64,000 nt of DNA from Candidatus Sulfomarinibacteraceae bacterium (GTDB taxonomy: Bacteria > Acidobacteriota > Thermoanaerobaculia > Thermoanaerobaculales > Sulfomarinibacteraceae): assembly GCA_963796455.1 (NCBI GenBank), contig CAWCLO010000003.1, positions 32,001-96,000 of the forward strand, in the 5' to 3' direction. Positions 4,205 through 63,562 of this stretch are shown here, piece by piece (position 1 is the first letter of the stretch; each line of letters opens with the position of its first letter). Below the pieces are notes generated by a model. It searched no databases. It saw only the letters and a program-made list of their open reading frames with translations, and was not told the DNA's origin. The position numbers were made by a program, and so were the translations under genes.

Positions 4205-4506
4205 GCCAAAGGCGACTATTCCTGTCCCTCCCCCGTCAATCTGGGGGGTGGGGGGCGGATCCAGTATCGAGTATCACTGCTGTCCAAAACAGATCGTCAC
4301 CTGAAGTTACCCACCTGACAACACGTGGTTTACGGGTTGGTTTTTGGCATATCCGGTTCGCGGTTGGCACGTACCCGTTCCCGATCCCGAATTGCAGCGG
4401 CAGCGACAGTGTCCAGCGTCAGCGACAGGCAACAGCGAACAGGGACAGCGGTCAGTGTTCAGCGACGGAGAGCAGCGGCAGCGGTCAGGAGTACAGGCGA
4501 CGAAGT

Positions 4507-4642
4507 GGCCACCACCGGGTCGTTCAACAGAAGAGGTAGCCGGTGGGCGGCCGATGTCAAGGACAGGCAGGGTGCAGGGCATCCTTGACATCGGCCACCA
4601 CACCGGCTTGTGGGTATGGGCATGAACGACCCGGAGGTGACC
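4507..4642 (+). promoter_or_regulatory. Nested long hairpin in the leader of the four-helix-bundle gene, occluding the RBS
   Basis: 4507-4526 pairs with 4623-4642 (18/20, includes GGAGG); 4538-4545 with 4601-4608; 4549-4563 with 4582-4596 (15/15). Confidence 0.75.
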
Positions 4643-4997
4643 ATGTCCTCAGCCGCCACGAACACCAAACTCGTTGCCCACTCGAAAGCACTCGAAGCCG
4701 CAGGAATCGCGATCAAGCTCGTGATGAGGGTTCCAGCTCCTCTGAAGTCGATAGCCGATCAGGTGATCCGGTCGGCAAGTTCGCTCCCTGCGAATCTGGC
4801 AGAAGGGCACGGCCGGTTCGGTAGAGACCGGTCGAACCACTGGAGGATCGCCTACGCCTCGGCCAAAGAGGTCGACAGCCACTTGCAGCTTCTCGCTCAC
4901 GCCGGGGCGATCAGCCCGACATGGAGCCAGTAGAGCGATGAACGCCTTTGATCAGGTGCGTGCAATGACTTGGAGATTGCTCAACCCGAAGTCTTGA
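4643..4997 (+). CDS. Four helix bundle protein (23S rRNA IVS protein / Avd-like family), one extra base near 4916
   Basis: DQVIRSASSLPANLAEGHGR...WRIAYASAKEVDSHL signature; removing one C in agcccga gives 117 aa colinear with the intact paralog at 59121-59474. Confidence 0.85.
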
Positions 4998-5173
4998 TTT
5001 CAGGGCCCCATGCCAGTCAAACGTGACGCTGACTTCTGTTCGCTGACGCTGAACACTGATTGCTGTTCCCTGTCCCTGACGCTGATCGCTGTCGCCGTCC
5101 CTGAACGCCAGCCGAGACTCTGTCTTGGACAAGAGTGATCTAGTATCCAGGATCCAGCATCCGGAACCAGAAG

Positions 5174-11420: not shown

Positions 11421-11755
11421 ATCACTCTTGTCCAAGACAGAATCTCAGACAGCGATCGGGGACAGCGTCAGTGACAGGAGTCGGCGGCAGCGACAGCGGA
11501 CAGGGTCACAGCGAACAGCACTCACTTCTTCGGGGCTCCGGCCTTTGTGGTGCGGCCGTCTCGGCCGCACGGTGTGCAGGCGAGACGCCTACACCACCAC
11601 GGCTCTTCCTTCTGTTGAACGATCCGGAGGTGGCCACGCCGTCACTGCACCTGATCGCTGACCCTGAACACTGATTGCTGCCCCCTGTCCCTGTTCGCTG
11701 TTGCCTGTCGCTGACGCTGGACACTGTCGCTGCCGCTGCAATTAGGGATCGGGAA
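11421..11755 (-). mobile_element. Four-helix-bundle element family, copy B (no gene, REP doublet in the centre)
   Basis: atcactcttgtccaagacaga at 11421; 11685-11743 is a 59/59 reverse-complement match to 4390-4448; keeps the anti-RBS arm and the ORF end (ccg aag aag tga gtgctgttcgctg). Confidence 0.75.
11547..11600. repeat. Inverted REP doublet (REPIN-like), GTGG plus palindrome
   Basis: GTGG-tgcggcc-gtctc-ggccgca and, on the opposite strand, GTGG-tgtaggc-gtctc-gcctgca; same 50 bp at 25271-25320. Confidence 0.7.
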
Positions 11756-11806
11756 GAAAGGGAGAAAGGGAGAAAGGGAGAAAGGGAGAAAGGGAGAAAG
11801 GGAGAA
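11751..11806. repeat. Octamer array (GGGAGAAA), about 6 units
   Basis: Directly visible. Confidence 0.95.
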
Positions 11807-11839
11807 CCGTACCGGAATTCCCGTTCGTGATAAGGAGCG

Positions 11840-11916
11840 CCGAACTCCGAACTCCGAACTCCGAACTCCGAACTCCGAACTCCGAACTCCGAACTCCGAA
11901 CTCCGAACTCCGAACT
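11840..11916. repeat. Perfect heptamer array (CCGAACT)11
   Basis: 11 exact units. Confidence 0.98.
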
Positions 11917-11929
11917 CCATCGAGTGCGA

Positions 11930-25443: not shown

Positions 25444-25571
25444 ATCGAGTATCGAGCATCGTGTTGCGCGTTCTCCCTTTCCCCCTTTCACCCTTTCACC
25501 CCTGCCCCTCTGCCATGGGGCGGCTCGTGCTCCCATTCGGGATCGGGATCAGGATCGGAACGGTCGTTCAA

Positions 25572-25727
25572 GATGTCATCCTGAGCGAAGTGCCTTTGGC
25601 GCGAAGTCGAAGGACCCGTTCGACTCGCGTTGCTCGCTCAGGGCAGGTTCTGCGGCTTGAGATGGTTGCGGTCCGTCTCATAGATCCTTCGACTACGCCC
25701 CTGTGGGGCTCCGCTCAGGATGACATC
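25572..25727. repeat. Palindromic REP-like element, TGTCATCCTGAGCG...CGCTCAGGATGACA, copy 1
   Basis: Terminal inverted repeat gatgtcatcctgagcg / cgctcaggatgacatc; close copy at 32687-32838. Confidence 0.85.
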
Positions 25728-25769
25728 GGGGGGCGACATTCCCATGCGCGAGAAACCGGTGCCGAACGG

Positions 25770-25900
25770 TTCTCCCTTTCTCCCTTGCCCCCTTTCTCCC
25801 TTTCTCCCTTTCCCCCTTTCTCTCCCTTTCTCCCTTGCTCCCTTTCTCCCTTTCCCCCCTGCCCCTCTGCCCCTCTGCTCCTCTGCCCCTCTGCCCCTCT
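25770..25900. repeat. Pyrimidine-rich octamer arrays (TTTCTCCC)n then (CCCCTCTG)n
   Basis: Directly visible, about 16 degenerate 8-nt units. Confidence 0.9.
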
Positions 25901-31628: not shown

Positions 31629-31701
31629 GTTAGATTGGAGTGGGCGGGTGGTCTCTCGGGCCCCTTTTCTCCCTTTCTCCCTTTCTCCCTTTCTCCCTTT
31701 C

Positions 31702-32487
31702 TCAGTGAATGTACTCGTCGTCCTTGCCGCCATCGATCACATCGAATTTGCGTTTTTTCTTCAGACGATCGAGGCGCTTTTGCAGGACAAAGGCCTCGGC
31801 CCTCTTGCGCCAGGTGTGCGCGACCTTACCGGCGCCACCCCGCTGAAAACCGGTGTAGGTCAGGAACACGGCACCGCAGATCCCACAAAACCCTGCAAAA
31901 TCTTTGCTCTCCAGGAATCCGATGAAGGCGAAAAGGATCTCGAGCCACAAAAACCATCGTGCTTTGATTGGCAGCACGAAGAAGAGCAGAATCGTCGCAT
32001 CGCCCCACAGGGTGGCAAAGGCGGCGATGATGATAGCGAGCAGAATCTGCTGTCCCTGCATGAGTTGAAACGCACCCGGTCCTGCTCCGGCGAAACCCGG
32101 CAAGATTCATCACCAGCTGCACCACCACGGCGATCACGGCGGCCCCGATCGTCCCTCGGGCCAACATCAGCCAGAAACGCTTTCGTCCGATCCTCCAGAA
32201 CACGTCGCGGCCAAACCAGAACAGGATCAGCAGTGCCAGGAGAAACCAGATTCCTGAGGCGCCCCAGCCGACAAAGGGATAGGTCAAGGGCTGCCACACA
32301 AATCCGCGAAAGACGTCCTGGGTCAGGCGAAGACCACCGGGATGATCGCGGTGCTTTGAAAGAACTGGAGCGAGAAGGTGACAAAGAGCGCGGCCAGGAT
32401 CCCGATCACATCCTTCGAAACCGGCATTCCCGAGCCTCCGATGCCGCCAAATCCGCTGCCACTTTGTTGTGTCGGTCGGTAGATCAA
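31702..32487 (-). CDS. Rhomboid-like membrane protein, two frameshifts (about 32330 and 32095)
   Basis: ggaggaata-TTG start; VWQPLTYPF, LFWFGRDV and ILLFFVLPIKARW segments lie in three frames; no catalytic GxSG seen. Confidence 0.65.
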
Positions 32488-32533
32488 TATTCCTCCGGCT
32501 GTGAATGGTAGCAGGCGCGTGGAAGGTTCAATA

Positions 32534-32945
32534 GGGAAAGGGAGAAAGGGGGCATGGGAGAAAGGGAGATCGGCCGGACGGTGGATGCTGGATTCCCAAA
32601 CCCCATGGCAGAGGGGCAGAGGTGCAAGGGGGCAAGGGAGAACCGTTCGGCACCGGTTTCGCACGTATGCGAGTGTCGCCCCCCGAATGTCATCCTGAGC
32701 GGAGCGCCTTCGGCGCGTAGTCGAGACCGTTCGACTCGCGTTGCTCGCTCAGGCAGGATCTGCGGAACCGAAAGTTGTTCCGTTCATCTCATAGATCCTT
32801 CGACTGCGCCCCTGTGGGGGCTCCGCTCAGGATGACATCGGGAAGCGACGTTCCCATTCAGGAGAGATCGATGCCGAGAGATTCTCCCTTTCTCCCTTTC
32901 CCCCTTTCTCCCTTTCGGGAGCGGGTGCGGGTGCGGGTGCGGATA
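32534..32945. repeat. REP-like palindrome copy 2 (32687-32838) inside extended inverted arms with octamer tails
   Basis: atgtcatcctgagcggag...ctccgctcaggatgacat; flanks gggagaaccgttcggcaccggtttc...gtcgcccccc and cgggaagcgac...ttctccctttctccc resemble the 25728-25800 flank. Confidence 0.8.
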
Positions 32946-59029: not shown

Positions 59030-59735
59030 CGGGAACAACGAACAGTAAACGGCGACAGCGGACAGCGTCAGCCAACAGAGGTCAGCGGCAGCGACAGTGG
59101 TCGGCGTCAGCGAACAGCACTCACATTTTCGGGTTCAACAGCCGCCAGGTCATGGCACGGACCTGATCGAAGGCGTTCATCGCGTCGCAGGCGGCTGTCC
59201 GACTGATAGCCCCCGCGTGGGCGAGAAGCTTCAAGTGGCTGTCGACCTCTTTGGCCGAGGCGTAGGCGATTCTCCAGTGGTTCGACCGGTCTCTACCGAA
59301 TCGGCCGTGCCCTTCCGCCAGATTCGCAGGGACTGAACTCGCCGACCGGATCACCTGATCGGCTATCGACTTCAACGGAGCTGGAACCCTCATCACAAGC
59401 TTTATCGCGATTCCCGCGGCTTCGAGGGCTTTCGAGTGGGCAACGAGGTTGGTGTTCGGGACGGCGTTGGACATGGTCACCTCCGGGTCGTTCATGCCTA
59501 TACCCACAAGCCGGTGTGGCGGGCGATGTCAAGGGTGCCCTGCACCCTGCCTGCCCTTGACATCGGTCGCCCACCGGCTACGCCTTCCGTTGAACGACCC
59601 GGAGGTGGCCACTTCGCCGCCTGGATTCCTGACCGCTGCTGCCGATCGCTGAACGCTGTTTCCGGTCGCTGTTCCCTGCCGCTGACGCTGGACACTGTCG
59701 CTGCCGCTGAATTTCGGGATCGGGATCGGGATCGC
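59030..59735 (-). mobile_element. Four-helix-bundle element family, copy E (intact gene, terminal 21-bp motif not seen)
   Basis: CAGCGN arms on both sides; leader hairpin 59475-59610 homologous to 4507-4642. Confidence 0.7.
59121..59474 (-). CDS. Four helix bundle protein (23S rRNA IVS protein / Avd-like family), 117 aa
   Basis: RBS ggaggtgacc-ATG; DQVIRSASSVPANLAEGHGR...IAYASAKEVDSHL. Confidence 0.9.
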   Translation of the reverse strand: MSNAVPNTNLVAHSKALEAAGIAIKLVMRVPAPLKSIADQVIRSASSVPANLAEGHGRFGRDRSNHWRIAYASAKEVDSHLKLLAHAGAISRTAACDAMNAFDQVRAMTWRLLNPKM

Positions 59736-63438: not shown

Positions 63439-63489
63439 TTCCTTCCGGTTCGCAGCAAGGGAGCCCCAGTCAGCCGAATCTTGAGATTT

Positions 63490-63531
63490 CGCTCTCCCCT
63501 TCCCCCTTTCTCCCTTTCTCCATTTCTCTCA
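63490..63531. repeat. Octamer array (TTTCTCCC)n
   Basis: ctctccccttccccctttctccctttctccatttctc. Confidence 0.75.
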
Positions 63532-63562
63532 TTCGTGGCTCCTCCGGTGGTACTCTGTCGCC

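Follow-up and report, generated by a model that had tools for sequence, protein, structure and literature searches.

What does the long hairpin do that directly precedes a small four-helix-bundle gene in this DNA, and in which nucleic acid is it read? Copy A of the hairpin lies at 4507..4642 on the plus strand of the window, the whole 64-kb stretch analysed here, and copy E, the same hairpin, lies at 59475..59610 on the minus strand. The initial annotation had described a nested inverted repeat and proposed a selected structure that silences translation from read-through transcripts. We found that the repeat is real and reads as described. The outer stem of copy A pairs 4507-4526 with 4623-4642 at 18 of 20 positions, with mismatches C4509.A4640 and A4514.A4635, and that of copy E pairs at 19 of 20. 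The inner stem (4553-4563 with 4582-4592) encloses an 18-nt terminal loop (4564-4581) with the same letters in copy E, and this inner element (4553..4592) carries TTGACA on both strands (4585-4590, plus; 4555-4560, minus). The predicted RNA folds reach -84.9 kcal/mol for copy A and -88.1 kcal/mol for copy E, with z-scores of -7.60 and -7.39 (about -7.5), and none of 200 shuffles equalled either. Folded as DNA, the template strand also forms a stable stem-loop directly upstream of the gene (-54.0 and -57.9 kcal/mol, z about -10.7).

Both leader copies noted at first are genuine, but the genome of the window (5.0 Mb, 90.5% complete), whose closest named relatives are MAGs of the Thermoanaerobaculia / Sulfomarinibacteraceae, contains 68 full hairpin leaders before a PF05635 gene. 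The compensatory inner pair seen between the two, A4563:T4582 in copy A and G:C in copy E (inner hairpin 59525-59564, minus strand), does exist in copy E, but G:C was found in just that one of the 68 genome copies, while 66 have A:T and one has A.C. Among 53 relatives, which do covary, the same pair is G:C in 49, A:U in three and another combination in one, so copy E carries the family state. This set of relatives was built from 188 upstream regions from 200 loci. The distinct regions numbered 160; 130 were parsed by anchors and 30 without anchors were dropped. Clustering at 86% gave 55 rows, and the removal of two rows of a back-to-back locus (L122) left 53 leaders. The TTGAC and ATGAAC anchors were partly required for parsing the leaders, while TA was no anchor.

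Covariation was then checked in these 53 relatives. RNAalifold recovered all three tiers, with two-sided changes in 26 of 40 pairs. In a 49-pair structure, 94.5% of cells were paired (shuffles gave 85.1 +/- 0.3%, slid controls 25-46%), and 31 of the 49 pairs had changed on both sides (shuffles 15.8 +/- 2.0; 0 of 500 as high), although the leaders are related and such counts overstate their independence. Covariation was seen in 12 of the 22 outer-stem pairs and is free along the spacer stem; A53:T152 (the -12 pair) and GTCAA/TTGAC are nearly fixed. The terminal loop is variable in length and sequence. The proposal of a selected structure was thus borne out by the paired cells and the two-sided changes, and the pattern of substitutions marks the hairpin as a real and strongly selected structure.

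Other cargo behind the same layout was also considered. A genome-wide search for paired TA-GTCAA-TTGAC gave 65 matches, of which 62 were known copies, two were truncated copies and one was unrelated; four distant PF05635 genes in the same genome were absent from these matches. At the level of the phylum, whose tallies are the only ones to include the unpublished genome G064, a protein query at 1e-16 matched 2 of 401 genomes, both from the same family as the genome of the window. The 30 loci checked among the phylum pattern matches were ordinary unpaired promoter pairs, with at most 10/18 paired. A DNA match to the core was found in 29 of 36 family relatives. The inner segment lies the same way round in all 68 full copies, and an invertible switch was ruled out. 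At one locus (L122:1027-1853, genome G220), two four-helix-bundle genes stand back to back around a single palindromic leader made of two 3' arms, without any TA arm; this leader probably arose by recombination in the centre of the hairpin. In relatives, a different, longer leader with GGTTGGCTTACGGCCAC-like hairpins stands before some copies of the gene (L034, L041, L056, L061 and L144).

The gene downstream belongs to PF05635/TIGR02436, with profile scores above the curated cut-offs (55.1 bits vs 33.8 and 55.9 vs 24, respectively). Intact copies encode 117 aa. Copy A (4643..4933, plus strand) encodes 96 aa by a frameshift: it has one extra base relative to a sister copy near 4916-4922 and stops at 4933, possibly through real decay or an assembly error. 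Copy E (59121..59474, minus strand) is intact and has an upstream in-frame ATG at 59495. Overall, 57 of the 68 genes are intact and pN/pS is 0.16, a ratio by which the gene is judged to be under purifying selection.

Hairpin and gene are carried on a cassette, which in copy A spans 863 bp (4275..5137, plus strand) and has IS4-type terminal inverted repeats with facing end motifs. The closest copies, at unrelated loci, share 98-99% identity over about 4273-5138, stopping at the cassette ends. The left end block (4275..4380, plus) shows homology to the 3' end of an insertion sequence of the IS4 family in the relative G017, and the right terminal inverted repeat is an 18-bp end (5120..5137, minus). 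Compared with the IS4 transposase element in G017, the ends match at 18/18 and 15/18 positions and the next 100 bases align with the left block. That element (L391:1016-2426) looks intact and lies between heptamer arrays, and its flanks are not direct repeats. A degenerate tract of CAG-led 6-7-mers (4396..4490, plus, limits approximate) is roughly complementary to a tract at about 5029-5105. Copy A is flanked by a 9-bp direct repeat (left 4266..4274, right 5138-5146; 8/9 identical), which is likely a target-site duplication. For 31 pairs of flanks outside arrays, the 9-bp identity was 0.64 vs 0.33 +/- 0.03 in shuffles, and only at k=9, with mostly imperfect repeats (perfect in 21 of 92 end pairs in the genome of the window and in 1 of 31 outside arrays). 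Most cassettes were observed within heptamer arrays, and the 9-bp flanking repeat corresponds to one heptamer plus two bases; we speculate that repeated insertion and loss could lengthen such arrays.

No match to the partner IS4 transposase was found in the genome (90.5% complete). The only PF01609 element there was ruled out as the partner by its different ends, and an IS256 transposase was ruled out as the mover, none having matched. A reverse transcriptase was ruled out as well, with no RVT_1 match in the same 90.5% complete genome. The ends and content of the cassette suggest an IS4-derived, non-autonomous element without a transposase. The IS4-type end motif was found in 8 of 24 genus relatives, compared with the family-wide occurrence of the core given above, and the hairpin-gene core is therefore wider than the IS4 shell. 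Copies are dispersed between chromosomal genes, for example those for oligopeptidase F and RlmL. A blastn search of the leader against 72,556 plasmids gave no match, and none of 28 pattern matches in viruses was a paired hairpin with a four-helix-bundle gene.

Several derivatives and repeats accompany the full cassettes. Gene-less derivatives (76 in the genome; in the window at 11635, minus, and 25232, plus) have the same ends and 5' arm, another internal hairpin and the last bases of the gene. Many copies share an internal deletion that fuses the leader, from position 47-48, to the gene at about codon 56, with a short GGCCG match at the junction (C1:999983, C1:391089, C1:1137328, C3:98094, C10:438253 and others in the genome; 49343, minus, in the window), and other copies are broken at the same leader position. 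Tandem arrays of 7-8 bases fill gaps of the window at 11740-11918, 25455-25900, 31652-31706, 32520-32590 and 63484-63560, and a second repeated block occurs in intergenic gaps at 25705-25804 and 32817-32916.

We then considered the first explanation offered for the hairpin, the silencing of read-through transcripts. The Shine-Dalgarno sequence GGAGG (4633..4637, plus) lies inside the outer stem, 5 nt before the ATG at 4643, and this spacing is shared by 109 of the 111 metagenome copies with an ATG here, among the matches listed. In read-through RNA, the 5' arm of the outer stem (4507..4526, plus) acts as an anti-RBS arm in the predicted fold, and the predicted cost of opening the RBS is 23.6 (A) and 31.1 (E) kcal/mol. 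For RNA starting at 4622 it falls to 9.8 (A) and 8.6 (E) kcal/mol. The position of the Shine-Dalgarno sequence, these opening costs and a lack of strand preference in the outer stem (below) make burial of the RBS plausible for that stem. By our own gene calls, a same-strand upstream gene is present in only 37 of 68 copies and 31 have none; convergent gaps are enriched (26 of 68 copies vs 187 of 974), and in 46 of 68 copies the next gene downstream runs on the other strand. The silencing claim is therefore upheld in part and as a prediction: the opening costs agree with it, but it fits the outer stem only and nearly half of the copies (31/68) have no same-strand gene to read through from. RBS burial accounts for the outer stem alone. 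It leaves unexplained the near-invariant TTGAC and its distance of 16-17 bp from a conserved opposite-strand TA, as well as a conserved pyrimidine-A at 4621-4622 and a template-strand wobble bias in the inner stem.

These remaining features were found to fall into place when the template strand is folded on itself. The -35 hexamer TTGACA (4555..4560, minus) lies on the template strand and is paired with 4585-4590 in the fold. It is followed by a spacer arm of 16 bp in copy A (17 in most relatives; 4539..4554, minus), which covaries with 4591-4607, and then by the non-template side of a predicted bubble (4527..4538, minus), where T-12, opposite A4538, is the last pair and A-11, opposite T4537, is the first unpaired base. 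The template side of the bubble is predicted at 4609..4623 (plus), with a start at C4621/A4622, and the 5' arm of the outer stem would form the non-template side of the downstream duplex. A TA after a 16-17 bp spacer from the template-strand TTGAC was found in 50 of 53 leaders. The distance from T-12 to the conserved A on the other arm is 11 nt in 32 of 53 and 11-13 nt in 51 of 53. This A is preceded by a pyrimidine in 51 of 53 leaders, pairing resumes two bases later, and the bubble comprises about 13 nt with duplex again at about +3. Copies in the genome of the window depart from the family mode, with a 16-bp spacer and a 13-nt gap. Transcription usually starts at a purine that follows a pyrimidine. 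In the sigma70 open complex, as described in the available text of PMC4496690, the -35 element is duplex, A-11 is flipped at the bubble edge and 12-14 bp are open. The predicted fold of the template strand matches this layout, with the -35 element, spacer, T-12 and A-11 all present at sigma70 spacing. T-7 is absent (the -10 hexamer of copy A, within 4527..4538 on the minus strand, is TACCTC), so the -10 element is not canonical.

A second set comprised at least 117 distinct metagenome copies, found with a pattern in which anchors and spacings were set in advance; for this reason, just the free positions were counted. Among the matches listed, the -1 base is a pyrimidine in 116 of 117, spacer cells are paired in 1917 of 2106 and bubble cells in 249 of 1287, and the downstream protein belongs to the PF05635 cassette family in 103 of 117, the rest being mostly truncated or frameshifted. 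The predicted start A is the first base of an ATG (4622..4624, plus) in 51 of 53 leaders, in frame with the main ATG and 21 nt before it in 49 of 53. A Shine-Dalgarno sequence before this +1 ATG is absent in 55 of 117 metagenome copies and only 2-3 nt away in 48 of 117, among the matches listed. A Shine-Dalgarno-led start at +1 was ruled out, most copies having no correctly spaced sequence of this kind. In the relative G052, four copies carry the +1 ATG but lack another one 21 nt further along. An in-frame ATG at +1 without a well-spaced Shine-Dalgarno sequence fits a start that may also be readable leaderless.

The same motifs were compared with the promoters of the host in linear duplex DNA. 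Host promoters follow TTGAC-17-TANNNT: the TA upstream of genes peaks at 68 for spacer 17 vs 4-26 at other spacers, genome-wide TTGAC-TA counts are 96 at spacer 17 vs 16-36 at others, and T-7 is present at 79 of 111 upstream sites. The outward-facing motif of the leader has T-7 in only 4 of 52 relatives, in 0 of 66 parsed copies of the genome of the window, and in 0 of 117 metagenome copies among the matches listed (0 of 51 after thinning). Facing the gene, position -11 is A in 0 of 53 relatives and in 0 of 117 metagenome copies among the matches listed, and a scan of the leader for a linear internal promoter in this direction gave 0 consensus sites. Judged against these host sequences, both linear directions look crippled in duplex DNA. 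The loss of T-7 could also weaken the folded form: according to the available text of PMC3753650, it weakens binding even to pre-melted forks, by 2.4- to 710-fold depending on context, and non-consensus bases at -10 to -8 weaken A-11 recognition. Among the metagenome matches listed, T is rare at -8 (7 of 117) and C at -13 is invariant (117 of 117), and CTAYYCG could therefore itself be a positive signal with another purpose. It is possible that CTAYYCG is read by a different factor; no host promoter class with this -10 was found outside the copies (4 at spacer 17 vs 2-8 at others).

The two strands of the hairpin could be distinguished by their wobble pairs. In the inner stems, wobbles favour template-strand over coding-strand pairing by 25 to 6 in the 53 relatives and by 69 to 18 in the metagenome copies among the matches listed (34 to 11 after thinning). 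Copies in the genome of the window show 15 distinct wobble events for the template vs 5 for the coding strand over all stems. The outer stem shows no strand bias in relatives (25 vs 20), as expected if it serves both strands. Computed with DNA energies, folding is better for the template strand in 38 of 53 relatives and 61 of 68 genome copies, while RNA energies put the strands about equal (template better in 29 of 53, coding better in 23 of 53).

These results bear on an explanation by RNA alone, in which the read-through fold hides the RBS and TTGAC-17-TA is a weak outward duplex promoter whose antisense RNA, pairing with the anti-RBS arm, could free it. The high opening cost in read-through RNA, the covariation of the outer stem without strand bias and the RNA energies that favour neither strand all agree with this explanation. 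Back-to-back TTGAC pairs are also common at ordinary divergent promoters among the phylum pattern matches, and the invariant C-13 would be compatible with an alternative sigma factor, the genome having 22 sigma70-family matches. However, it does not explain the gene-side pyrimidine-A at open-complex distance, the wobble bias of the inner stems or the stop of pairing exactly at -12. Host promoters have the T-7 that these leaders almost always lack, the -10 has no host class of its own, and the 31 copies without a same-strand upstream gene again stand against it. We consider RNA-only control unlikely.

We favour the reading that the hairpin is a single-strand promoter resembling Frpo, with RBS burial as a second lock, and consider it probable on the basis of the sequence comparisons above. 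The template strand would fold on itself into a sigma70 promoter that is already open and faces the gene, and RNA polymerase would take the -35 and -10 from the far arm of the fold while copying the near arm. Sense RNA of the gene would start at or near A4622. Such RNA would have the Shine-Dalgarno sequence and the ATG at 4643 and would lack the anti-RBS arm, and would therefore be translated. In duplex DNA the gene would be kept off by two locks, because the gene-facing promoter has no A-11 and read-through RNA would fold the outer stem over the RBS. A fuller claim is that the cassettes carry a pre-melted sigma70 promoter that works only in single strands and is silent both ways in duplex, so that an Avd-like protein is made only when cassette DNA is single-stranded; this we put forward tentatively, giving it slightly less than an even chance. 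Candidate occasions for a single strand are entry by horizontal transfer, repair gaps and cruciform extrusion. IS4 elements themselves move as duplex DNA. Exposure on the lagging strand was without support: by a hand tally of the 68 copies, 40 are co-oriented with replication and 28 are head-on, with no head-on enrichment.

The geometry that suggests a single-strand promoter would be the same if the folded strand bound polymerase mainly to make a second-strand primer, as at ssi sites, or as a decoy, rather than to make mRNA. Frpo transcripts can prime second-strand synthesis, according to the available text of 10.64898/2026.01.09.698686. The predicted RNA, however, begins with an in-frame ATG and has a correctly spaced Shine-Dalgarno sequence, and the gene is under selection, which makes a primer or decoy role improbable.

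We also considered that antisense read-through RNA might fold into a mimic of the open complex that polymerase binds or copies, as with 6S RNA. 6S RNA has a similar arrangement of closing stem, central bubble and inner stem, and the 46 of 68 copies with an opposite-strand downstream gene could supply such RNA. In Rfam, nothing matched the leader at the gathering score, 6S included, and the 7 matches seen were at chance level and of miRNA type. The strict TTGAC and 17-bp spacing would further point to base-specific reading of B-form DNA, and we regard a 6S-like RNA as very improbable.

The four-helix-bundle protein or a single-strand transposase could instead bind or cut the hairpin, whose likeness to a promoter would then be incidental. 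Avd, a relative of the PF05635 protein, is a pentamer acting with RNA and a reverse transcriptase in the available text of PMC7826257, and the PDB relatives 2gsc and 2rld of the PF05635 protein have five chains. In addition, 70 of the 76 gene-less derivatives retain the anti-RBS 5' arm without its partner, and the genome has 6 Y1-transposase matches. Against these observations, the 90.5% complete genome has no RVT_1 match, the IS4-type ends of the cassette lie away from the hairpin, and too many promoter features coincide, so we hold this explanation to be highly unlikely.

A single-strand promoter makes a prediction about the timing of expression and the start site of the RNA, and would give a direct handle on the role of PF05635 proteins outside diversity-generating retroelements. 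If the reading is true, these widespread cassettes would pass through a single-stranded stage that has stayed hidden, and the long-orphan PF05635 family would be expected to have a role in handling single-stranded cassette DNA. In a literature search that took in few subscription papers, we found no report of a single-strand promoter in connection with this gene family or with a cassette in a chromosome.

Parts of the arrangement can be compared with known systems. The cassette resembles IS4-derived MITE or MIC cassettes in its IS4-type ends, 9-bp flanking repeats and missing transposase, and differs from IS4-derived non-autonomous cassettes in that its hairpin-gene core is more widespread than its IS4 shell. 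It shares the PF05635 gene with 23S rRNA intervening sequences but is not located in rRNA. Transcripts that enter IS10, IS50 and IS200 from outside include an upstream arm that pairs with the RBS; RNA started inside lacks this arm. The cassette RBS is likewise predicted to be sequestered in read-through RNA and free in internally started RNA; unlike these elements, the cassette has no visible working linear internal promoter, with 0 consensus sites and no gene-facing A-11. 6S RNA and the minus-strand origin of filamentous phages are hairpins that imitate an open promoter by means of a central bubble, whereas the predicted product of the cassette is the mRNA of the adjacent gene.

The closest likeness is to the Frpo/ssi single-stranded-DNA promoters described, in the available text of PMC9849209, PMC12672017 and PMC11541004, from the conjugative plasmids F, ColIb-P9 and pESBL (classes 1-3). 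As in those promoters, a long intergenic stem-loop of the template strand lies before a gene and is predicted to be off in duplex; where those promoters rebuild -35 and -10 boxes, the cassette fold would rebuild a -35 and a -10 that is not canonical, a comparison drawn from the published text. In contrast, the cassette is chromosomal, has 68 dispersed copies without a transposase, and its leader has no DNA similarity to any of the plasmids searched, so that membership of Frpo/ssi, as far as sequences can tell, fails on location and sequence. Three further features appear to set the cassette leader apart: the bubble that opens at -11, the missing T-7 of its -10 and the second lock, which covers the RBS. 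The single-strand promoters tested to date come from the leading regions of plasmids, and a chromosomal, multicopy version whose layout is exactly that of an open complex would be a compact sensor of single-stranded DNA.
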